64,000 bases of DNA, from the NCBI GenBank assembly GCA_964360815.1, contig CAYHYA010000001.1, positions 5,574 to 69,573 on the forward strand, read 5' to 3'. The notes under the pieces are model-generated. The model searched no databases. It was not told the origin of the DNA and saw only the letters and a list, made by a program, of their open reading frames with translations. The DNA comes from an uncultured Candidatus Saccharibacteria bacterium. GTDB taxonomy: Bacteria; Patescibacteriota; Minisyncoccia; Phycocordibacterales; JACOZG01. Made by a program: the position numbers and the translations under genes. Positions 1,056 through 55,326 of this stretch are shown piece after piece (the stretch's first letter is position 1; each line of letters begins with the position of its first letter).

Positions 1056-3011
1056 TCAAATCTGACGAAAAAAGAATAATTCTACCTCTGGGAAAGTTTT
1101 GATGGAATTTTCGACATAATCGACAATTTCCTGACTCTGCTTTATTTTTGGGTTGAGCGTCAACCCTTTTTTAGCATACTCTCTTGCCTCTTTAAATTTA
1201 CCCATATAAATATAGGCCACGGCCTTTATCCAATATGATTGGGGATTTTGTGGTACTAATTCGATGGCTTCATCTAAAATTTTTTGGGCTTCATCTAATT
1301 TATTTACTTGGAATAAATTTTGGAAAATTAAAATATCCGCCAGGTTTAATTTGGCTCGAAAATGATCTGGATTATTCTTGATATAATTCTTGTATTCAGT
1401 TTCTATAACTACTAGCTCCTTTTTAAGATTCAGCGCAGTTGATGGACTAGAAAGCACTTCGGGATCAACGGTGATTGCGCGCTGGAAATCAGTTGATATT
1501 CTCCATAAAAAGGCGTGTGGATCAACCGGAGAAGAAATTAGTCTCGGATAAAGCGGGATACGTTCTTCGGCAGATTTTACCGCTCGCATTTGCCCATTAA
1601 CTATTTCGGCTTGCAGTAGGGGCGACAACCCCCAGACCGTTGACCAAATTACAAAAAACAACAAGAACACGGATAGGGGGTATGTGATTGCCGGCCTACC
1701 GGTCTCCCAGTTTACAGTTTTTCTAACTCTTTGAAACAGTATCACCGCCGAAACCATCATAAAAGCTAAGATTGGATAGGAAATCGAGGTTTCGAAAGCG
1801 GTTTGTAATTCTATAAAATGAAGTGGAAAATAAACTAACAAAATAGCCGACAATATTCGATCATTTTTTTCTGGGGAATTTAGGGCCGAGTAAACAAGAG
1901 AAAAAATAATAACAAGATAAACCAAAATATAAAGACCTAGGCCAACCGCTCCACCATCAACCAAATGATCGATGACCACATTATGTGCTCGATCAAGCCA
2001 CGCCTCATTTCCATATTCGTCTTGCAATACCCGATTATCGTAATGCGCCTCAAAGACTCGTTCAAAATTATCCATACCCCAACCAAAAACAGGTCTTTCT
2101 AGAAAAATTTTATTTGAAACTTCCCAAGTTATCGGTCTTACAGCCGTTGCCTGCTTAAGATATATTCTTTGTAGAAAACCATTTGGGGTTACGAGTGAGT
2201 AAGACGCCCAGGATATTAATAAAACACCGAAGCTCAAAATTGAGTAAGTAAAGATTTTTTTGTTTCGTTGATTTCTTATTTTAGAAATTAACCAAATTAA
2301 AATTAACGCGAACAAAGACAGAAAGATCACATAAGCCGACGCCCTAGCCTCTCCGACAAAAACCCCAGAAAAATCGCCAGACCAAACCTGACGGTTTAAT
2401 ATGTTGGGATTTATAATAAATGAGATTGGCAAAGCATACATCCACCACTTTTTGTGTTCAGATTGAAATAAGTAATATATAGATAACAAAAAAACGCCAA
2501 AAAGATACATCCCGGCAAAAGTGGAGTTACTCAAGGTAAAAGCATTGCCGGGATAATCTTTAAAAATTACACCCAGCCCGCCAGGGCCAAATAAAGAAAG
2601 AAGGGAATAAAATGAGGTTGAAAGTATAATTATTAGTAATATTTTTCTATATTTTTCTCGATCGGAAAATACTAACCACAAAATCCAAGCAAACAAACCA
2701 AGGTTGAGAAAATACCATAACCCCGTTGTTCTTGTCGCCAAAGACCAGAAAGAGTTGTCGAAATTAAAACCGACAAAAGCAGAAATAATGAGGGAAATAA
2801 AATAAAGAAGTAACAGGAGAAGAATTGGAGATTTTGGAATAACTAAAGTCTGTTTTTTTTTGAAAAGTTTGACAGCAAACCAGATAAGCAAAAGTGAAGT
2901 TGTAGCGATTAAAAAAATCGATCGCGTTGACGAACCACCATAAAGAAAAGATTGTATATTAATAAAAGGGAATAAGACAAAAAACAAATATATTAGATAT
3001 TCTGCAAACAT
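1056..3011 (-). CDS. Polytopic membrane protein with O-antigen-ligase-like (Wzy_C) domain and C-terminal TPR repeats; possible O-oligosaccharyltransferase
   Basis: About 12 predicted TM helices. The LDRAHNVVIDHLVDGGAVGLGLY block resembles the Wzy_C/PglL/PilO loop. The C-terminal ~200 aa are TPR-like (AIELVPQNPQSYWIKAVAYIYMGKFKEAREYAKKGLTLNP). The gene is AT-rich relative to its neighbours. Confidence 0.5.
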   Translation of the reverse strand: MFAEYLIYLFFVLFPFINIQSFLYGGSSTRSIFLIATTSLLLIWFAVKLFKKKQTLVIPKSPILLLLLLYFISLIISAFVGFNFDNSFWSLATRTTGLWYFLNLGLFAWILWLVFSDREKYRKILLIIILSTSFYSLLSLFGPGGLGVIFKDYPGNAFTLSNSTFAGMYLFGVFLLSIYYLFQSEHKKWWMYALPISFIINPNILNRQVWSGDFSGVFVGEARASAYVIFLSLFALILIWLISKIRNQRNKKIFTYSILSFGVLLISWASYSLVTPNGFLQRIYLKQATAVRPITWEVSNKIFLERPVFGWGMDNFERVFEAHYDNRVLQDEYGNEAWLDRAHNVVIDHLVDGGAVGLGLYILVYLVIIFSLVYSALNSPEKNDRILSAILLVYFPLHFIELQTAFETSISYPILAFMMVSAVILFQRVRKTVNWETGRPAITYPLSVFLLFFVIWSTVWGLSPLLQAEIVNGQMRAVKSAEERIPLYPRLISSPVDPHAFLWRISTDFQRAITVDPEVLSSPSTALNLKKELVVIETEYKNYIKNNPDHFRAKLNLADILIFQNLFQVNKLDEAQKILDEAIELVPQNPQSYWIKAVAYIYMGKFKEAREYAKKGLTLNPKIKQSQEIVDYVENSIKTFPEVELFFFRQI

Positions 3012-3028
3012 AATCTCAATGATAACAC

Positions 3029-3057
3029 AAAAACTCCCCCATGAAGGGGGAGTTTTT
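3029..3057. terminator. Bidirectional intrinsic terminator (AAAAACTCCCCC-atgaa-GGGGGAGTTTTT)
   Basis: Perfect 12-bp stem with flanking A-run and T-run, between the 3' end of 3107..5245 (-) and the start of 1056..3011 (-). Confidence 0.7.
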
Positions 3058-3106: not shown

Positions 3107-5245
3107 TTAGTTCAAACCAATATATGGTGTGACAAACTCATCAAGGTTAGAAGAATAGACAATGTCGGTAGTGTCATCGGTGCTGGTATCATCCCAGTAG
3201 AAACCACCGAGCGACAAACGATACTGACCAGCGGCCCCAACAGTCGGCAAGATAGCCGTTGCCGTTAAGGTGAAGGTCTCGGTCTGACCGTCAATAATCT
3301 CGTAGAGACCAGCGGCATTAAGAGTCGTGTCGGAATTAACCAAGGTCATAGTAACGCCACCAGTGGTACCCGTACCAGCTCGATCGACAACACCTGAAGT
3401 CTTGGCCGCTGTTACACCGGAAGTCTTGGCGTCAACAAGCGACGACACATAGATATTGCCACCGAAAGCGGTAATGCTGTACTTAAGCGTGAAGGTACCT
3501 TGATCATTAGGATCAGTGGTACTACCTCCTTCAGCCCCAACAGGCATAGGGGCACTCACCAATTTAAGCTGAACTCCCTTACTGCGAAGCTGATTGGCAT
3601 CAGTAGAAACCGAACCGGTCATATCGGCATCAGCTAACTTCGTATTGGACTCATCGCGGATATCAGCCAAACCAGTGTTGTCGGTTTCGGTCTCACCTAG
3701 AACGACAGCGATAGTATCGCCCTCGGAAAGAAGATTGCCGGCAGTAGCGCTAACGGGATTAATGTCAGCCCGAATCACAACCGTAACCGTATCTCCGGCT
3801 GGGATAGTGAAGTCAACATCATCAAAGAGTACCAGCTCCGTCAGATTAGTGCTGTCATCAGTGCTAGCCAAGGTGTAAGAAGTCGTAGTATCTCCACCAT
3901 AAGTAGCAGAACCGTAGGACTGACCGTCAATGATCAATTCAATGGCCGGAGACATATCACCAGCAATCACATCATCAACATCAACAGCATCACCAGTAAT
4001 AGTAACCATGACACCTAACTTCTTGATCTCTAAGGCGGAATCGCCTTCCGCTTCAAGCGTAAAGGAAGCTAGTTCCACATCCTGTTTAGTATCAGTGGTG
4101 CTGATTTCAGCAATATGGAACTTGTTAATGGCATCATCGTCTTCGGTAATCTTAAACTCTGAATCAGCAGCAGACGCGAAACTCTTGAAGTTAAAGGTAC
4201 GAGTACCAGTGCCTGGATCCTCGGAAGTGGAATCACCCCGTCCATCAACATAGCGAACGCTAGTGATATCAGCTGTCCATGAATCGGGATCATCATCGCT
4301 GGAATCCAAGTTGCTGACTGCCGACACGGCAATCGTTAATTCGGCCGTTTCGCCAGCCTTAATGATTGCTCCATCGTCCAAAGCAATCGTCTTGGTCCAG
4401 TTGTTCTCATCAGTAAACCCAGTACTATCAACGCGACCAACTTCTTCGCCATCGAGCCAAACAGATACTTCAGTCGCATAATCCTCGAAGTCAGAGGTGG
4501 TATTTGTGCTCTCATTGAAGACAACGCGAACGGCCGTGAGTTCGAGATCAGAATTATTATCTGCCTCAACCTCAAGACCAATCACCGGAACATCATCTTC
4601 ATCCTCACCAACAGGCTCGTTAGTGAGATCAGACATTAGGGTGTAATTCTCAACAACTCCTGTGCTACCGGTCAAGCCGGTGTCTGGGGTTGTACCGCCA
4701 CCTGTGGACGGCATACAGTTGTTCGAGAGCAAATTGCCGTTCGGACAAGTGGTGCCAGTCTGCGCCGGCATACAGTTGTTCGAGAGCAAATTGCCGTTCG
4801 GACAAGTGTTGCTAGACGAACCAGGACCCGGATTTACCGGCGGATAAGTACCACCAGTCGTCGCCATGATGGCGTTGTAGGTGATATTACCGTAATAACC
4901 GACAGCCGGAGCAACTCCGTGGTCGCCCTGCCATTTGGCCAAAGCGGCCTTGGTCTGCGGACCGAATGTACCGGTCGCGCCAGCCGGAATGGCATAGCCC
5001 TGCGACATTAACCATTGTTGGAGTTTGGTTACCTCCATACCGCTATTACCAACTGTCAAAGGCGGCATCGGCACAATGTCTGCGGACATTGAACCACCAC
5101 CCTGCAAAGCACCGATTTGGGCAGTCAGTTGGGCAATTTGGGCCATTAATTGATCAACGGTCATCGTCTGGGCGCTAACCGCACCAGAGACACCGAAGAT
5201 CAAGGCCAACGCGGCCAAACCGAAAATAAATTTCTTAATACTCAT
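3107..5245 (-). CDS. Secreted cell-surface protein: signal peptide, peptidoglycan-binding (PG_binding_1-like) domain, tandem CPNGNLLSNNCMP repeats, long acidic Thr/Asp-rich region
   Basis: N-terminus MSIKKFIFGLAALALIFGVSGAVSAQ is a signal peptide. TKLQQWLMSQGYAIPAGATGTFGPQTKAALAKWQ resembles a PG-binding domain. A 57-bp tandem DNA repeat at about 4709..4820 encodes the Cys motif twice. Confidence 0.55.
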   Translation of the reverse strand: MSIKKFIFGLAALALIFGVSGAVSAQTMTVDQLMAQIAQLTAQIGALQGGGSMSADIVPMPPLTVGNSGMEVTKLQQWLMSQGYAIPAGATGTFGPQTKAALAKWQGDHGVAPAVGYYGNITYNAIMATTGGTYPPVNPGPGSSSNTCPNGNLLSNNCMPAQTGTTCPNGNLLSNNCMPSTGGGTTPDTGLTGSTGVVENYTLMSDLTNEPVGEDEDDVPVIGLEVEADNNSDLELTAVRVVFNESTNTTSDFEDYATEVSVWLDGEEVGRVDSTGFTDENNWTKTIALDDGAIIKAGETAELTIAVSAVSNLDSSDDDPDSWTADITSVRYVDGRGDSTSEDPGTGTRTFNFKSFASAADSEFKITEDDDAINKFHIAEISTTDTKQDVELASFTLEAEGDSALEIKKLGVMVTITGDAVDVDDVIAGDMSPAIELIIDGQSYGSATYGGDTTTSYTLASTDDSTNLTELVLFDDVDFTIPAGDTVTVVIRADINPVSATAGNLLSEGDTIAVVLGETETDNTGLADIRDESNTKLADADMTGSVSTDANQLRSKGVQLKLVSAPMPVGAEGGSTTDPNDQGTFTLKYSITAFGGNIYVSSLVDAKTSGVTAAKTSGVVDRAGTGTTGGVTMTLVNSDTTLNAAGLYEIIDGQTETFTLTATAILPTVGAAGQYRLSLGGFYWDDTSTDDTTDIVYSSNLDEFVTPYIGLN

Positions 5246-16723: not shown

Positions 16724-18169
16724 CTAATTCCCGATTTGGAAAATCCCCGACCCGCCGTAAATCGTTTCGCCGTTGACCACCGTGGAGAGACGGAACCAGT
16801 AAGAACCAGGTGTAATCGAGGCGAAAGCCACATTTTTACTACCAGTGTTCTGATTTAAGGAAGGAGTAAAATTACTAACTAATTGGTTATTGGGCGTCAT
16901 CAGTTCGACTCGAATTAGATTGCCATTGGGGACATTACTTGATGTCCAAGTCACCATTTTGGGCGAATCGGCCTGACGCCAAAGATTGTTCGCCAACGGG
17001 GCTGTCACATTGATCGAGGCGGTGGTTTGAGCTGGCGGCGGATTAGTACACTGGGTCGTATTGAGAGTGCAACTACCACTACAAATTAGAGAACCGAGAG
17101 AGTAACCATAAGAACCGCAAGTCAACGAACCGAAATTGTTGCCATCACATTGTTCTCCACCTTCAATTAAACCGTTACCACAAGTAGTCGCGGGCGGCGG
17201 CGGAACGGAAGTCGGAGCGGCGGTAAATTGGAAAATCCCCGACCCGCCGTAGATGTTTTGCCCGTTAACGACAGTGGAAAGACGGAACCAATAGGCGCCA
17301 GTCGGCAAACTGGAGTTGGTCAAACGACCAGACTCAACGCCGTCGTTTGCGGTAGTGAAATTAGAAAAACCAGTGGCCGGCTGATTGTTGGGGGTCCAGA
17401 GCTCAACCAAAATCGTGTTGCCGTCTGGAATGTTTGTGTCCGACCAATAAATCACCGGTCCGTTATTCACCGTCCATGAGCTGTTAGCCGGCGGCGAAGA
17501 CACATTGATCGTGACGGGACCAGGAGGAATCGGAGGTGAGGGTGGTGAAGTGAAATCGTTGCCGGTACTACCGCTTGCCGGCAGACAACTGTTCGAGAGT
17601 AAGTTGCCGTTCGGGCAAACAGAAGTCGAAGAGGGTGAACTGGCGGTAATGGTGAACCAGCGACTCCAACCGGTGATGGTCTCGCCGTTAACCGTAGTGG
17701 TGATTCGGACGCGATATTGGCCCGGCGCGGGCTGACTGTTCAAAACAAGGTTCTGCCGGCCGTCGTTTATAGTATTGAGAACACTTGTCGCACCGGTAAA
17801 TCTATCGGCCGAATTTAAAACTCGGACATCAACTAATGTTTCTGGCGGTAGGTCTTGACTCCACCACCGTACCGGCAATTCCGATCCGGCTTCATAACTA
17901 CCACCGCCCGGTACCGTGACGGTGATACTGGAGGTGGTGGTGGAATTATTAATGCTGGTTGAAATTCGTTGACCGATTGCTTGTCCCTGTAAAACTAGCA
18001 ACTGTTGTTGAAGTTGGGCGATCAAAGCATTGAGCTGGCTGATCAGTTGTTGCAAATAAGCCGCTGAGATGTTTTGCGTCTGCGCTTCGACTGGAGGTAA
18101 ATTGATAAAACCGATCGAGACGATAATTAATAAAAGACTAACAAAAACAAACCTTGATTTTCTATTCAT
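16724..18169 (-). CDS. Secreted repeat protein with three ~95-aa beta-domain repeats, a Myxococcus-type cysteine-rich repeat (CGNGxxExGEQCDxG) and the CPNGNLLSNSCLP motif
   Basis: Signal peptide MNRKSRFVFVSLLLIIVSIGFINLPPVEAQ. Internal repeats end ...YWFRLSTVVNG(Q/E)(N/T)IYGGSGIFQ. The DNA repeats at 16738..16803 and 17230..17296 were read directly. Confidence 0.55.
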   Translation of the reverse strand: MNRKSRFVFVSLLLIIVSIGFINLPPVEAQTQNISAAYLQQLISQLNALIAQLQQQLLVLQGQAIGQRISTSINNSTTTSSITVTVPGGGSYEAGSELPVRWWSQDLPPETLVDVRVLNSADRFTGATSVLNTINDGRQNLVLNSQPAPGQYRVRITTTVNGETITGWSRWFTITASSPSSTSVCPNGNLLSNSCLPASGSTGNDFTSPPSPPIPPGPVTINVSSPPANSSWTVNNGPVIYWSDTNIPDGNTILVELWTPNNQPATGFSNFTTANDGVESGRLTNSSLPTGAYWFRLSTVVNGQNIYGGSGIFQFTAAPTSVPPPPATTCGNGLIEGGEQCDGNNFGSLTCGSYGYSLGSLICSGSCTLNTTQCTNPPPAQTTASINVTAPLANNLWRQADSPKMVTWTSSNVPNGNLIRVELMTPNNQLVSNFTPSLNQNTGSKNVAFASITPGSYWFRLSTVVNGETIYGGSGIFQIGN

Positions 18170-18182
18170 GGTCCCAATTCTA

Positions 18183-18191
18183 CCCCCCCCC
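18183..18191. repeat. Homopolymeric C9 (G9 on the coding strand) tract 21 nt upstream of the start codon of secreted repeat protein 16724..18169
   Basis: Read directly: tacccccccccctgaatt. Confidence 0.8.
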
Positions 18192-32581: not shown

Positions 32582-33601
32582 CTAGATCGAGCCAAAAGAC
32601 AAAGAACGCAAAAGATGCTGGCGTATTTTGTGTCCACGACAATGCTTTAGCACACCTAGATACGAAGTAAGATTGGCGGGAGTGATCTCGTCCCGATCCA
32701 ACCGCCGTAAAATGCGCCTTTTGGTCCGCGTTCGCAAAACTCGATAATGCGGCCGGGCGACGTACCCCAGATAATCAATTCCTTGGTGCAACTTACGAAT
32801 GATAATTTTGTCGGGATGCAAAGAAAGATTTAATTTGTTTTTCAAAAAATCAGAAATTGGCCAAATCAGGTTTTCTAAATAATCACGGCTTTGATGGACG
32901 ATGACAAAATCATCACAGTAACGCAGGTAATATCTGGCCTTAATTTCGTGTTTAATAAATTGATCAAGTTCGTTGAGATAAATGTTGGCAAAAAGCTGAC
33001 TGGTTACATTGCCCAGCGGTAAGCCACAACCAGGGATGATAGCGAAGCTCTCAACGACCGATCGAATTAGAGTGATAACACGGCTATCACCGATTACCTT
33101 TTCAATCAATGACAACAAGATAGCATGATCAATATTATCAAAAAACTTTTGAACATCACATTTTAAGGCGTAGCTTTGTGAATGATAATTACCACTGATC
33201 TTGCGAACAAAGGATTCTAGACGACTTACTCCACGATGCACTCCTTTGTTGAAGCGACAAGAATACGAGTCGTAAATAAAATGCCGATCAAAAAAATGGT
33301 ACAGTCCACGGAAAAGTGCTTGGTGTAGAACTCGGTCGAGCACCGGGGCCTTGTGGATATGACGTATCTTTGGGTCCCGAACGTAAAAAGATTGGTAGGA
33401 GGAGGGATGGTAAGCGTCGGAGACCAGATCAGCATGAAGTTTAAACAAATTATTTTCTAAATCGAACCCGAACTCCAAAACTTTGATTTTTTTGATTTTG
33501 CCGCGCTTGAATTCTCGCCAGGCATTGAGTAAATTAGACAGCGACACAACATGCTCCCACAACGACCAAGTAGACCCCCCCCCAACAGATTTCCTTGCCA
33601 A
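32582..33601 (-). CDS. Diversity-generating retroelement (DGR) reverse transcriptase
   Basis: RT motifs 1-7 with YCDD. Motif 4 reads LGNVTSQ, the DGR-specific [ILV]GxxxSQ that replaces QGxxxSP. 339 aa. The cognate TR and VR lie directly upstream. Confidence 0.8.
   Translation of the reverse strand: MARKSVGGGSTWSLWEHVVSLSNLLNAWREFKRGKIKKIKVLEFGFDLENNLFKLHADLVSDAYHPSSYQSFYVRDPKIRHIHKAPVLDRVLHQALFRGLYHFFDRHFIYDSYSCRFNKGVHRGVSRLESFVRKISGNYHSQSYALKCDVQKFFDNIDHAILLSLIEKVIGDSRVITLIRSVVESFAIIPGCGLPLGNVTSQLFANIYLNELDQFIKHEIKARYYLRYCDDFVIVHQSRDYLENLIWPISDFLKNKLNLSLHPDKIIIRKLHQGIDYLGYVARPHYRVLRTRTKRRILRRLDRDEITPANLTSYLGVLKHCRGHKIRQHLLRSLSFGSI
33575..33583. repeat. Homopolymeric C9 (G9 on the coding strand) inside codons 7-9 (GGG) of the DGR reverse transcriptase
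   Basis: Read directly: tagacccccccccaacag. The minus strand atggcaaggaaatctgttGGGGGGGGGtct encodes MARKSVGGGS. Confidence 0.8.
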
Positions 33602-33939
33602 TTGTTCATCAGTTAGGAGAATTATATAAGCATGTTTACCAAATTGGAAAGAAATTAAGTAAGGGCGACAAACTCGGCGTTTGGTCTAAAATAGAAATAG
33701 TGTGTTTGGAATGTCTTGAATTATCGATCACGGCCAGCTTGTTGCCATTAACATCAAAAACAGAGCCGCTTCGGCGATTAGGGTTAAAAATAGAAGTGAT
33801 GAAAAGGTTGATTAGGTTGTGTTGCGAAATTAAGATCATTGAAGATCGGGTTTATTTATGTTTAACTCAACCGTTACAGGAAATTTCCAAGATGACAGCT
33901 GGCTGGTACAAATACGCCAACCAAAAAGAGCGCCCTTAA
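33595..33939 (+). CDS. Possible Avd-like four-helix-bundle accessory protein (23S-rRNA-IVS family), encoded divergently from the RT
   Basis: ELYKHVYQIGKKLSKGDKLGVWSKIEIVCLECLELS resembles the IVS/Avd helix-1/2 pattern. The orientation is opposite to the TR and RT, which lowers confidence. Confidence 0.3.
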   Translation: MPIVHQLGELYKHVYQIGKKLSKGDKLGVWSKIEIVCLECLELSITASLLPLTSKTEPLRRLGLKIEVMKRLIRLCCEIKIIEDRVYLCLTQPLQEISKMTAGWYKYANQKERP

Positions 33940-33957
33940 GACGCCCCGTTTTGGTAA

Positions 33958-34076
33958 CACTACCTCACGAGTCCGACCATTCGGGTTGGCGTCGTCGCGA
34001 TTCCACCAATTGATCTTGAACTGTCTATCGTTCCAGTTGGCGTAGACGGCCTTGCCATCAGAGTTACGCGAACTCG
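33958..34076 (-). repeat. DGR template repeat (TR), 119 bp, Asn-codon (AAY) rich
   Basis: Aligns without gaps to VR 34352..34470. 13 of 15 differences fall at TR adenines (coding sense on the minus strand). The track's ORF 33874..34176 most likely just spans this non-coding TR. Confidence 0.8.
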
Positions 34077-34339: not shown

Positions 34340-35143
34340 TTACGAGTTTAGCACTACCTCACGAGTCCGACCATCCGGGTGTGCGCCGTCGCGAAGCCAC
34401 CAACCGACCTTGAACTGTCTACCGTCCCAGTCGGCGCCGACGGCCCTGCCATCAGAGTAACGCGAACTCGTAATGGTCACGTTAATTAGGTCGAGATGAC
34501 CGCCCTCGATTTTTTGGTGGTGCAATGCTTCCAACAACATCCGCTCGCCAATGGTTGAGTATATAAGGCCACGTTGATCGAGTTGGTCCGGCGAAAGATT
34601 GGAGTATTCTTCACTTGGTTCCACCGCCCCTTCGGTCCAGAGAGCATAAACACTCTCTGGCCGAGGTTGGTTTATGGTAACGGCCTGATCGAGATTTTTC
34701 GTGTAACGAAAACACGGAAAAGCGACTTCGTTAACGCGGTAAATTTGATCGAGCGACAAGTTGGGGTCAACGACGAGTAGCGTTGGTTGCCGAAACCTAC
34801 CTGTCGGCAGGGTCGGCACGGTCAGTTTGTTCAAATCTATTCGTCGTTGGTGCTGATCAAGATAATATTGTTCCCACCACTCGAGATCGTTACCAATATT
34901 GACAGCATCGTCAGTCGCACCGATTAAGAAATTACCGACCCTTCTCTGCCATTCTCTTTTTTCCTTGACCAGTTTTTCGGCCTGATCAAAATCTATCGTT
35001 ATCGGCATCGCGTGAACCAAAGCACTGCAAATTTCCCTCGTTTGACCGAACGTCATCGGTTTCTTAACCACCGCTGGAACAGTACCGCTTTTACTCATGG
35101 TCAGTTTCCTTTCACTTAATTCAAAGACCCCGGCTAAAGGCAC
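34340..35143 (-). CDS. DGR target protein (variable protein); the C-terminal ~40 aa are encoded by the VR
   Basis: C-terminus ...SSRYSDGRAVGADWDGRQFKVGWWLRDGAHPDGRTREVVLNS compares with the TR-encoded SSRNSDGKAVYANWNDRQFKINWWNRDDANPNGRTREVV. No signal peptide was detected. Confidence 0.7.
   Translation of the reverse strand: MPLAGVFELSERKLTMSKSGTVPAVVKKPMTFGQTREICSALVHAMPITIDFDQAEKLVKEKREWQRRVGNFLIGATDDAVNIGNDLEWWEQYYLDQHQRRIDLNKLTVPTLPTGRFRQPTLLVVDPNLSLDQIYRVNEVAFPCFRYTKNLDQAVTINQPRPESVYALWTEGAVEPSEEYSNLSPDQLDQRGLIYSTIGERMLLEALHHQKIEGGHLDLINVTITSSRYSDGRAVGADWDGRQFKVGWWLRDGAHPDGRTREVVLNS
34352..34470 (-). repeat. DGR variable repeat (VR) at the 3' end of the target gene
   Basis: See the TR entry. 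The final ~21 nt (ggtcggactcgtgaggtagtg) are identical to the TR, including its adenines, which is consistent with an IMH-like unmutated end. Confidence 0.8.
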
Positions 35144-39661: not shown

Positions 39662-40309
39662 TTAATTTAGTGTTTTGATGATTTTGTTCCAGAAATCGCG
39701 TCCACGTCTGAACCAATCTCGTCGGCGGAGAACAGCAACACTCGCTCCCAACAGAGAGAGGGTTCCTGGTTCCGGAATCGGCGTGCCGCGGAGAACAAAA
39801 GAATCAAATCCCATTCGATCGCCAGCGGAGGAAAAATCTCCGATTAGACGAAAAGCGAAATTAGGATTATCGCTGGCTTCCGGCGGCAGGGCCAGAGATT
39901 CTAAAATCCAGTCGCTTTCGTTCATGTTCGTGTAGAAAGCAAGTGGTTTCCAATCTTTCGAATCGGGGGTCCACTCAACTCGCATCACGTCATCAATCTC
40001 GAGCGCCCCCCTAACCTGTTCGGCAAACTCCAAAATCAAACCATGAAAGCCGACCGTGGAAATTTCAAGAAGCAGCGTGCCGTCCGGCCCACCACTTATT
40101 CCACTAAAGTCGGCGCCCCAGTCTCCCTCGAAGGCCGCCGCATCAGACGAGATAAGTTGCCATCGCCCATTAGCACCGGTCCATCGATCAAATGCTTGAT
40201 TGGGGCCGCTGATTTCGAATCCATCCTCGAATAGAATATCGGCCGAAACCCCCCCCACCATCAACAGAGGTAAGAGTAAAACCAGTCGCGACTTTCTTCT
40301 TCCACCCAT
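39662..40309 (-). CDS. Secreted protein with C-terminal PEP-CTERM sorting signal
   Basis: Signal peptide MGGRRKSRLVLLLPLLMVGGVSA. C-terminus IPEPGTLSLLGASVAVLRRRDWFRRGR is PEP followed by a TM helix and an Arg-rich tail. Confidence 0.55.
   Translation of the reverse strand: MGGRRKSRLVLLLPLLMVGGVSADILFEDGFEISGPNQAFDRWTGANGRWQLISSDAAAFEGDWGADFSGISGGPDGTLLLEISTVGFHGLILEFAEQVRGALEIDDVMRVEWTPDSKDWKPLAFYTNMNESDWILESLALPPEASDNPNFAFRLIGDFSSAGDRMGFDSFVLRGTPIPEPGTLSLLGASVAVLRRRDWFRRGRDFWNKIIKTLN
40249..40256. repeat. Homopolymeric C8 (G8 on the coding strand) in the signal-peptide codons of the PEP-CTERM protein
   Basis: Read directly: gaaaccccccccacca. The minus strand gtgGGGGGGGtt encodes VGGV. Confidence 0.8.
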
Positions 40310-54756: not shown

Positions 54757-55326
54757 TTACGGGAGAAACTGAAGCAGGAACCATTGTCTCGACGTGTCAG
54801 AGGAAAAAACCGAGATAACCTGATAGGTTAATGTATCATCAAAAAACGTGTCCACCATGTTGGTTGGGATATTATCTATGTTTTCTACTGTACCCATCAG
54901 AGCAACCTTGTAATCTCGACCCTGCGAATCTGTTTTGTACCAGTAACCCAAATCCGGATTACTGGATGGACCAGAGGGGTCAGCGGGTCTGGGGTCTAGA
55001 TATTGAGATATCGCCGCTAGTTTATTGGGGTCATGGTAATCGTTGTTCGTGGTGGGGCAATCCCAACAATCAAGTCCGGCTGACGTTATTTCGGTTCCGC
55101 CAATAAAAATATCATCTGGATAACGACCATAATCTGTCTTATACAACTCCAACGCGTTTCTTAATTGAATTAAGTCCTGCACACGTTTTGAGTCGCGGGC
55201 TTTGGCCCGGGCTTGGGCGAGGGAAGCAAACACAATGCTCGACAAAAGGGAGATAATCGCGATGACGACTAAAATTTCGATCAGCGTGAACCCCCCCCTC
55301 TTTTCTGTTCGTTCTGTGTTCTTCAT
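54757..55326 (-). CDS. pilA: Type IV major pilin (PilA/GspG-like)
   Basis: RGGFTLIEILVVIAIISLLSSIVFASLAQARAKARDSKRVQDL matches the GspG/PilA consensus. The leader contains a G8 tract. Confidence 0.7.
   Translation of the reverse strand: MKNTERTEKRGGFTLIEILVVIAIISLLSSIVFASLAQARAKARDSKRVQDLIQLRNALELYKTDYGRYPDDIFIGGTEITSAGLDCWDCPTTNNDYHDPNKLAAISQYLDPRPADPSGPSSNPDLGYWYKTDSQGRDYKVALMGTVENIDNIPTNMVDTFFDDTLTYQVISVFSSDTSRQWFLLQFLP
55291..55298. repeat. Homopolymeric C8 (G8 on the coding strand) in the prepilin leader of the major pilin gene, immediately before the G/F cleavage site
   Basis: Read directly: gtgaacccccccctctt. The minus strand agGGGGGGGGttc encodes RGGF. Confidence 0.8.

Follow-up and report, generated by a model that had tools for sequence, protein, structure and literature searches.

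A probable phase-variable poly-G switch shared by the reverse transcriptase and Avd-like genes of a Patescibacteria diversity-generating retroelement

A G9 tract where two divergent genes begin

A 64,000-nucleotide stretch of DNA from an uncultured Candidatus Saccharibacteria bacterium (GenBank assembly GCA_964360815.1, contig CAYHYA010000001.1, positions 5,574 to 69,573; hereafter the window) contains a diversity-generating retroelement (DGR) with a run of nine G residues near the start of its reverse transcriptase (RT) gene. The initial annotation proposed that slipped-strand mispairing at this run could toggle RT translation and thereby DGR activity, which raised the question of whether the tract is a genuine switch or a chance homopolymer. 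Positions 33575-33583 of the window read CCCCCCCCC on the + strand, which is G9 on the - strand that carries the RT, and in the longest mechanical ORF (32582-33601, TTG start, MARKSVGGGS...) these bases are codons 7-9, as originally described. A first-order Markov model of the window predicts approximately 0.4 G/C runs of 9 or more and approximately 1.6 of 8 or more, whereas the window holds 2 and 4, respectively, with none of length 7. All four are G on the coding (-) strand and lie within 60 nt of a gene start. An independent assembly of the same organism (contig L001, 99.94% identical over 6681 bp with no indel) also has G9.

Comparison with related loci showed that, while the core idea of the initial annotation is supported, its anatomy requires correction. 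The TTG start at 33601 is an ORF-finder artefact that arises from the Pro-Ile codons of a gene on the opposite strand, and the conserved RT start is instead ATG 33609. Relative to this ATG, the G9 allele of the window is OFF rather than ON, and G10 is ON. In addition, the same tract is read as Pro codons by the divergent, overlapping avd gene, so the proposed switch acts on both proteins. The features of the locus are as follows.

33575-33583 (-): G9 homopolymer (C9 on the + strand), shared by the N-terminal coding regions of RT (Gly codons) and Avd (Pro codons), 24 nt after ATG 33609 and 21 nt after ATG 33551
33607-33609 (-): conserved ATG start of the RT, the antisense of the Avd His5 codon CAT, out of frame with the RT body with G9
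32582-33574 (-): RT body downstream of the tract (Pfam RVT_1, E=7e-21; motif LPLGNVTSQLFANIY)
33457-33609 (-): 50-codon ORF that ATG 33609 yields in the G9 state (the OFF product)
33551-33553 (+): ATG start of Avd on the far side of the tract, the antisense of the RT His17 codon CAT, out of frame with the Avd body with C9
33551-33616 (+): 21-codon ORF that ATG 33551 yields in the C9 state (the OFF product)
33584-33939 (+): Avd body (bAvd-like four-helix bundle); the mechanical ORF is 33595-33939, with a TTG start
33621-33650 (-): promoter-like site for the RT transcript (TTTCCA, 18 nt, TATAAT)
33927-33947 (-): terminator-like hairpin plus T run just after the template repeat (consensus scan only)
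33955-34076 (-): template repeat (TR)
34349-34470 (-): variable repeat (VR) at the 3' end of the target gene
34340-35143 (-): DGR target gene (267 aa, no Pfam hit)

The assignment as a DGR is supported by the [IVL]GxxxSQ-type motif of the RT and by the 122 nt TR/VR pair, which has 17 mismatches, 14 of them at TR adenines. A homology search with the RT returned 6557 homologues at E<=1e-20, and the named ones among the best 120 come from Patescibacteria-type MAGs. The Avd assignment is less certain, as the full-length bAvd match (E=5e-07, 30.6 bits) falls below the 40-bit curated cut-off, although NCBI names the protein a four helix bundle protein and homologues lie on the opposite strand next to the RT in 141/161 loci. 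The -10 of the promoter-like site ends 11 nt before ATG 33609, so the mRNA would be nearly leaderless, and a -10-like hexamer at the same 11-nt distance is the mode in relatives. However, this site overlaps the ELYK codons of Avd and the two constraints cannot be separated, so the promoter reading rests on consensus only. The terminator-like hairpin would end the TR transcript before it runs antisense into avd. The DGR region has no Rfam hit, and folding of the RT 5' region indicated no structure (z=+0.9).

Conservation of the tract and of the interlocked reading frames

To determine whether the tract is conserved, we examined related Patescibacteria DGR loci. A G7-G12 run lies within 150 nt 5' of the RT core in 105 of 149 loci, with runs of 9-10 as the mode, against 6 G runs and 0 C runs of 7 or more in 786 kb of flanks of the same loci. 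Interestingly, five tract-less relatives carry (TG)n, (GT)n, (CT)n or (TGTCC)7 at this position, so what is conserved is a mutable repeat at this place, whatever its sequence. In loci of the same type as the window (68 non-redundant), an ATG with a frame open to the tract exists on the far side for RT in 70/71 cases and for Avd in 68/71, whereas the baseline at random antisense positions is 0.28, 0.18 and 0.08 per frame. The RT frame is open from tract to core in 67/68 loci, against 30 and 2 for the other two frames.

The conserved peptide MN[NQ][RW]Q upstream of the tract initially resembled a conserved RT N-terminus, but it is fully determined by the antisense of the LPIVH codons of Avd, and synonymous sites were therefore analysed instead. 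His codons between tract and core in the RT are CAT 85, CAC 0, and in the Avd N-terminus they are CAT 64, CAC 2, compared with a background of 62% CAT (p=1e-18 and 1e-11, respectively). Codons that would place stops in the antisense frame are depleted: Leu TTA+CTA account for 3/100 against 31% (p=2e-12), and Ser TCA for 0/63 against 17% (p=6e-6). The loci are related and the counts are not fully independent, although synonymous sites at 45-65% amino-acid identity should be saturated. These data indicate selection for the two ATGs and for open antisense frames. Each ATG is embedded as the antisense of a His codon in the partner gene, and both reading frames cross the tract.

The codons on the two strands are aligned on both sides of the tract, so a single tract length sets the frame of both genes at once. 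In the window, lengths 7, 10 and 13 are in frame for both genes and give a 341-343 aa RT and a 128-130 aa Avd, while G9 is out of frame for both. In accordance with this coupling, RT and Avd phases agree in 58/63 loci (p=2e-22). Five relatives of the same architecture that lack the repeat and use mixed Gly codons are in frame for both genes (5/5), whereas only 28% of tract-bearing loci are in frame. The repeat-less loci have Ala-Thr-Ser opposite Gly-Gly-Gly, which, together with the variation in tract length and phase, led us to reject the possibility that dual coding of Gly3 and Pro3 forces the GGG/CCC sequence.

Length alleles in otherwise identical contigs

The ON allele predicted for this organism does exist. 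The 342 aa RT predicted for G10, which begins MNNWQGNLLGGGSTWSLWEHVV, is on record as an exact match, and its contig (L184) comes from the same groundwater well (Hainich H51, replicate R3), is 99.7% identical to the window and has G10. Both genes are in frame in this contig, where Avd reads MLPQRPSRPPPQQISLPIVH from ATG 33551 through to its stop, and 3 of the 6 SNPs that separate it from the window fall in the VR (within 8 nt of VR). The L184 and L001 contigs have low coverage (2.5x and 4x). Further samples of the organism were sought by exact look-up of ThyX, which found nothing, and of the dCTP deaminase, which gave only the L001 contig and a contig that stops short of the tract. Genome and metagenome scans gave no locus more than 63% identical to this RT; same-species evidence came only from exact-sequence look-ups.

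In a second species, 30 contigs with identical flanks carry G7 (1 contig), G8 (2), G9 (15) and G10 (12), where only 8 or 11 is in frame for both genes; the in-frame G8 is rare. The tract is the commonest difference outside the VR, and the VR varies between samples while the TR does not. Two further pairs of contigs differ only in the tract, one with G8 and G10 across 5766 bp and the other with G10 and G9 across 3649 bp. In contrast, another well-sampled species has G8 (OFF) in all 10 samples, and nine of ten predicted in-frame RT proteins of other species are not in the collection searched. Across assembled loci, the phases (ON 18, OFF1 21, OFF2 26) are what chance alone would give (p=0.47), with no sign of selection for ON at the consensus level.

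Collectively, this comparative evidence, obtained from assembled sequence alone, suggests that the tract is probably a phase-variable switch of DGR activity. In this model, RT is translated from ATG 33609 and Avd from ATG 33551, yielding the N-terminally extended proteins MNNWQGNLLGGG-RT and MLPQRPSRPPPQQIS-Avd, and replication slippage changes the tract by one or a few bases, such that most cells carry an OFF allele and a minority carry an ON allele that makes both proteins. DGR mutagenesis of the target gene would therefore itself be stochastic and heritable. RT, Avd and DGR RNA are necessary and sufficient for cDNA synthesis in the Bordetella phage DGR (PMC6182149). The use of the far-side ATGs as start codons, the lack of active protein from OFF alleles and the reversibility of switching within a lineage are all inferred, and some RT could be made in the G9 state, as two in-frame TTG codons exist (33601, and 33562 as annotated by NCBI). 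We consider it somewhat more likely than not that such a bidirectional frameshift switch, built on a G/C homopolymer or another simple repeat, operates throughout the Patescibacteria-specific DGR lineage.

Alternative explanations and related systems

The most plausible alternative, although unlikely, is that RNA polymerase stuttering or ribosome slippage on the G run supplies a small fraction of in-frame RT and Avd from any DNA length, with length variation as a tolerated by-product of constitutively low expression. The uniform phases of assembled loci would be expected if every length is equally serviceable, the VR varies between samples of a population whose consensus allele is out of frame, and homopolymers of this length appear to support slippage in cases such as Thermus dnaX, IS elements and Shigella mxiE. 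However, known programmed slippage sites appear to keep a fixed frame offset among orthologues, whereas all three phases and true in-frame alleles occur here, and the in-frame reading of all relatives that lost the repeat indicates that direct reading works and is what selection keeps when no switch is present. The di- and pentanucleotide repeats of other relatives have no transcriptional-slippage counterpart that we are aware of, and bacterial RNA polymerase slippage seems best documented on A/T rather than G/C runs. The two mechanisms are not mutually exclusive.

It is less likely still that the tract is non-coding, with RT starting at TTG 33562 and Avd at TTG 33595, and that it tunes promoter or 5'-UTR spacing in the 32-nt divergent intergenic region or mimics a ribosome-binding site. 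The NCBI call of this RT (326 aa) does start 12 nt after the tract, and in 28 relatives of a different type (type ii) the RT has its own ATG, most often 13 nt after the tract, where the tract is followed at once by a TAnnnT hexamer, most often with 7 nt between hexamer and ATG, and stop codons separate tract and ATG in several cases. This layout fits a promoter-spacer switch (hif, porA, opc type), and such a role remains plausible for the RT in type ii relatives, and another gene of the window has the same layout (G9-TAGAAT-7 nt-ATG). However, about 30 window-type loci have no in-frame ATG, GTG or TTG anywhere 5' of the RT core at their present length, the RT frame is open through the tract in 67/68, and the CAT-only His codons and avoidance of antisense stops have no explanation if nothing is translated across the tract. 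The predicted RT promoter also places the tract downstream of the predicted transcript start, and the repeat-less loci read in frame from the far-side ATGs. The exact anatomy of the initial annotation, with RT starting at TTG 33601, G9 as the ON state and only RT switched, is very doubtful: this TTG is in frame at G9, and a second species has the same in-frame TTGGCAA start in one phase, but it derives from the antisense of the Avd CCA-ATT codons, is absent where Avd has Pro-Leu or Pro-Val, has no Shine-Dalgarno sequence and lies 8 nt inside an ATG-started frame that contains the family N-terminus, while Avd is affected as well. A chance homopolymer or assembly artefact, despite the low coverage for this organism and the error-prone sequencing of homopolymers, is contradicted by an enrichment of several-hundred-fold over background across 149 loci from many projects, by reproduction of the same allele in 10 to 15 independent assemblies, and by identical pairs that differ by 2 or 3 bases.

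The tract is comparable to the poly-G/C contingency loci of Campylobacter jejuni, Neisseria (e.g. hmbR and hpuA) and Helicobacter, in which a G/C homopolymer of about 8-12 bases in the 5' coding region moves a gene between intact and truncated frames, different lengths occur in otherwise identical genomes and many alleles are OFF (PMC8355987, PMC3786947; homopolymeric tracts at 5' ends in general, PMC2831843). Here, one tract is read on both strands by two divergent, overlapping genes, the regulated function is a targeted mutagenesis machine rather than a surface structure, and the hosts are free-living groundwater Patescibacteria rather than host-adapted pathogens. A single repeat that switches two divergent genes also appears to operate in the Haemophilus influenzae hifA/hifB system (van Ham et al. 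1993), where a (TA)n repeat would act on -35/-10 spacing and thus on transcription, whereas our evidence points to reading-frame control. Phasevarions, based on phase-variable mod methyltransferase genes, seem to share the two-layer logic, but with epigenetic regulation of many genes in place of adenine-directed hypermutation of one target gene. Compared with the Bordetella phage BPP-1 cassette (mtd-avd-TR-brt), the locus shares an RT with the LGxxxSQ motif, what appears to be an Avd-like four-helix protein and a TR/VR pair with adenine-specific differences, but avd is inverted and overlaps the RT 5' end antisense, the start codons are interlocked across a homopolymer, and a terminator-like hairpin separates TR from avd and RT. 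In the literature searched, including the full texts of Wu et al. 2018 and Roux et al. 2021, we found no paper linking DGR RT or Avd with homopolymers or phase variation, and no paper on contingency loci in Patescibacteria; as far as we could find, this gene arrangement is undescribed.

Constant diversification of a working ligand-binding protein should be costly, and a repeat-driven switch of both essential proteins would explain how a population keeps most cells stable while a few explore. Tract length would then provide a sequence-only read-out of whether a DGR is armed in a given sample, and the model predicts a link between in-frame allele frequency and VR diversity. Many RT and Avd genes of this lineage are mis-annotated, with wrong starts or truncated calls, and surveys that need intact ORFs will under-count or misjudge them. 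Notably, the other G8-G9 tracts of the window lie at the 5' ends of three surface-protein genes, so contingency loci may be a general strategy in these small-genome, episymbiotic bacteria.

The poly-G tract and its locus

Window positions 33575-33583 are C9 on the + strand, which is G9 on the strand that carries the reverse transcriptase (RT). In the longest mechanical ORF (32582..33601, TTG start, MARKSVGGGS...) these bases form codons 7-9, as stated in the initial annotation. The window contains only four G/C runs of 8 or more (18183 C9, 33575 C9, 40249 C8 and 55291 C8), all of which are G on the coding strand and lie within 60 nt of a gene start, whereas about 1.6 runs of 8 or more, and 0.4 of 9 or more, are expected. 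There is no G run of 6 or more on the + strand; all six G/C runs of 6 or more are C on this strand, which is G on the strand that carries most of the genes, and their lengths are 6, 8 and 9 with nothing at 7. A second assembly of the same organism (contig L001, NCBI GCA_038063275.1, Hainich groundwater well H51 replicate R1) also has G9, with 4 SNPs and no indel over 6681 bp.

The locus appears to be a complete DGR, in which the - strand features below are listed in order, followed by the + strand gene that lies between TR and RT:

34340..35143, - strand: a 267-aa target gene
34349-34470, - strand: the variable repeat (VR), within the target gene
33955-34076, - strand: the template repeat (TR)
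33947-33927, - strand: a terminator-like hairpin plus T run
32582..33601, - strand: longest mechanical ORF of the RT (RVT_1, E=7e-21)
33595..33939, + strand: a bAvd-like four-helix protein

Avd and RT are therefore divergent, and their 5' ends overlap at the tract. VR has 17 mismatches to TR, 14 of them at TR adenines. The three mismatches not at TR adenines are T33 to G, C89 to A, and T120 to C near the 3' end. The hairpin lies directly after TR and overlaps the 3' end of avd on the other strand. It could end the TR RNA, or it could be part of the DGR RNA element that binds Avd.

Conservation of the tract and inferred start codons

We fetched 160 related loci, all from Patescibacteria-type MAGs and metagenomes and 45-63% identical in amino acids. 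Of the 149 loci with at least 120 nt of upstream sequence, 105 have a G run of 7 or more within 150 nt 5' of the RT core (G7 x6, G8 x12, G9 x42, G10 x31, G11 x11, G12 x3), while the remaining 786 kb of the same loci holds six G runs and no C run of that length. Five loci without a G tract carry another simple repeat at the same place, about 25-100 nt 5' of the RT core: (TG)~11 in L047, (GT)~9 in L061, (GT)~7 in L131, (CT)~7 in L069 and (TGTCC)7 in L156. The avd frame stays open through these repeats (HTHT.., RERE.., GQDRTGQ..), and what is conserved there is a mutable repeat, whatever its sequence. Two further loci, L119 and L126, have degenerate tracts combined with poly-A runs (G5AG3 plus A7, and A7G6 plus A8, respectively). 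Both are out of frame from the conserved ATG, and the switch may have moved to an A run. About 30 further loci have no repeat, and their avd ATG and RT ATG lie back to back, 4-10 nt apart.

A bAvd homologue lies on the opposite strand next to the RT in 141 of 161 loci. In the 71 loci of the same type as the window (68 non-redundant) there is no ATG between the tract and the RT core, and about 30 of them have no in-frame ATG, GTG or TTG at all at their present tract length. Despite this, the RT frame is open from tract to core in 67/68 loci, against 30 and 2 for the other two frames. Instead, an ATG with a frame open to the tract lies on the far side of the tract, both for the RT (70/71) and, on the other strand, for Avd (68/71), whereas random antisense positions give 0.28, 0.18 and 0.08 per frame. 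The ATG of the RT is the antisense of a conserved His in Avd (..LPIVH..), and the ATG of Avd is the antisense of a conserved His in the RT (GGG-LNSH-IF). Protein-level conservation of these histidines cannot explain this, because the synonymous sites are constrained. His codons in these two short segments are CAT 85, CAC 0 in the RT and CAT 64, CAC 2 in Avd, compared with 62% CAT in the RT bodies (p=1e-18 and 1e-11). The sense codons whose antisense is a stop are almost absent: Leu TTA+CTA 3/100 against 31% (p=2e-12) and Ser TCA 0/63 against 17% (p=6e-6). Selection therefore keeps an ATG and an open frame running to the tract on both strands, and we infer that both genes are read through the tract, as Gly-n in RT and Pro-n in Avd.

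Five relatives with the same architecture (L004, L018, L036, L135 and L161) have mixed Gly codons and no repeat, and all five are in frame for both genes from exactly these ATGs. The initial annotation had suggested that relatives encoding the glycines with mixed codons would argue for coincidence; such relatives do exist, but they are rare and all are in frame.

Codons on the two strands are aligned on both sides of the tract, so the same length puts both genes in or out of frame. RT and Avd phases agree in 58/63 loci (p=2e-22), and among tract-bearing loci the three phases are about equally common (in frame 18, the two out-of-frame phases 21 and 26; p=0.47). In this window, G9 is out of frame for both genes, where ATG 33609 (- strand) gives a 50-aa peptide and ATG 33551 (+ strand) a 21-aa peptide. 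In contrast, G10, G7 or G13 gives a 341-343 aa RT (MNNWQGNLLGGGSTWSLWEHVV...), and the same lengths give a 128-130 aa Avd (MLPQRPSRPPPQQISLPIVH...). TTG 33601, at which the initial annotation began the RT, is a by-product of the CCA-ATT codons of Avd and is not conserved, while the NCBI call starts at TTG 33562, after the tract.

Length polymorphism within species

The predicted G10 RT of this organism exists as an exact sequence in the protein collection (P0121), and its contig (L184) comes from the same well, replicate R3. L184 is 99.7% identical to the window over 2344 bp and carries G10, with both genes in frame. Three of its six SNPs lie within 8 nt of the VR, where L184 equals TR, and the C89/A90 pair of the TR/VR alignment is exactly where L184 differs from the window.

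In a second species, one 90% cluster holds N-terminal variants of an otherwise identical RT. On 30 fetched contigs with identical flanks the tract is G7 x1, G8 x2, G9 x15 and G10 x12, and only 8 or 11 is in frame, again for both genes. By contig counts, the in-frame form is about 3 of 61. The tract is the commonest difference outside the VR, and the VR differs between samples while TR is invariant.

Other identical pairs of contigs also differ in tract length. L152 (G8) and L159 (G10) have no other difference in 5766 bp, L052 (G10) and L160 (G9) have none in 3649 bp, and L097 (G9) and L108 (G12) also differ. L159 additionally carries a second copy, 91.7% identical, of the avd-5'/RT-5' region on the same contig (104-655 versus 2485-3036; L152 2236-2785), which suggests two related DGR cassettes side by side. 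There are also counter-examples, as a species sampled 10 times is always G8, which is out of frame, and L102 and L104 are both G9. The only four differences between the latter two 5993-bp contigs (three A/G, one T/A) cluster within 13 nt at positions 4233-4245, inside the 577-aa gene downstream of the RT rather than in the recognised VR, and this may be a second, remote DGR target.

Proposed mechanism and comparison with known switches

A promoter-like site (TTTCCA, 18 nt, TATAAT) ends 11 nt before ATG 33609, and the same spacing is the mode in relatives. The RT mRNA would then be nearly leaderless and would contain the tract. The region has no Rfam match and no stable fold. RT and Avd together with the DGR RNA are necessary and sufficient for cDNA synthesis in the model DGR (PMC6182149), so replication slippage at the tract would arm or disarm the whole element, as the initial annotation had proposed for the RT alone. 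The use of the far-side ATGs, the lack of active protein from OFF alleles and the reversibility of switching are inferred from sequence comparison, without expression or read-level data. The tract is probably a phase-variable switch, where most cells would be OFF and a minority ON.

Transcriptional or ribosomal slippage could alternatively supply in-frame product from any tract length. This fits the uniform phases, but not the repeat-less in-frame loci, the non-homopolymer repeats or the unconserved offset. A purely non-coding promoter or UTR role does not explain the codon constraints, although it probably applies to the RT in 28 relatives (type ii) in which the RT has its own ATG, most often 13 nt after the tract, and the tract abuts a TAnnnT hexamer. 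In those loci the tract would switch the frame of Avd only. Chance or artefact is excluded by the enrichment of the tract across related loci and by the repeated recovery of the same alleles in the two multiply sampled species.

The proposed switch works like the poly-G contingency loci of Campylobacter and Neisseria, and in controlling two divergent genes at once it resembles the Haemophilus hif repeat. It differs from both in that it is read on both strands, its start codons are interlocked antisense and it controls a mutagenesis system. No report linking DGR RT or Avd with homopolymers or phase variation was found in the literature searched. Roux et al. 2021 describe a Patescibacteria-restricted DGR clade (clade 2), to which we infer that this family probably belongs.

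The three other long tracts of the window also lie near gene starts. At 18183-18191 (- strand), upstream of gene 16724..18169, G9 is followed at once by TAGAAT, then 7 nt, then the ATG of a 481-aa secreted repeat protein with a signal peptide, while TTGCCC lies 18 nt upstream of the TAGAAT. This looks like a promoter whose spacer is half homopolymer, feeding a leaderless mRNA, and is the same layout as the type ii DGR loci. At 40249-40256 (- strand), in gene 39662..40309, G8 lies inside the signal-peptide codons (..LLMVGGVSA..) of a 215-aa protein with a weak C-terminal PEP-CTERM-like match (19.7 bits against a 20.7-bit cut-off), making this a candidate frameshift-type contingency gene. At 55291-55298 (- strand), in gene 54757..55326, G8 encodes R-G-G just before the G|FTLIE prepilin cleavage motif of a type IV pilin-like protein (N_methyl, E=1e-07), which is a candidate phase-variable pilin.
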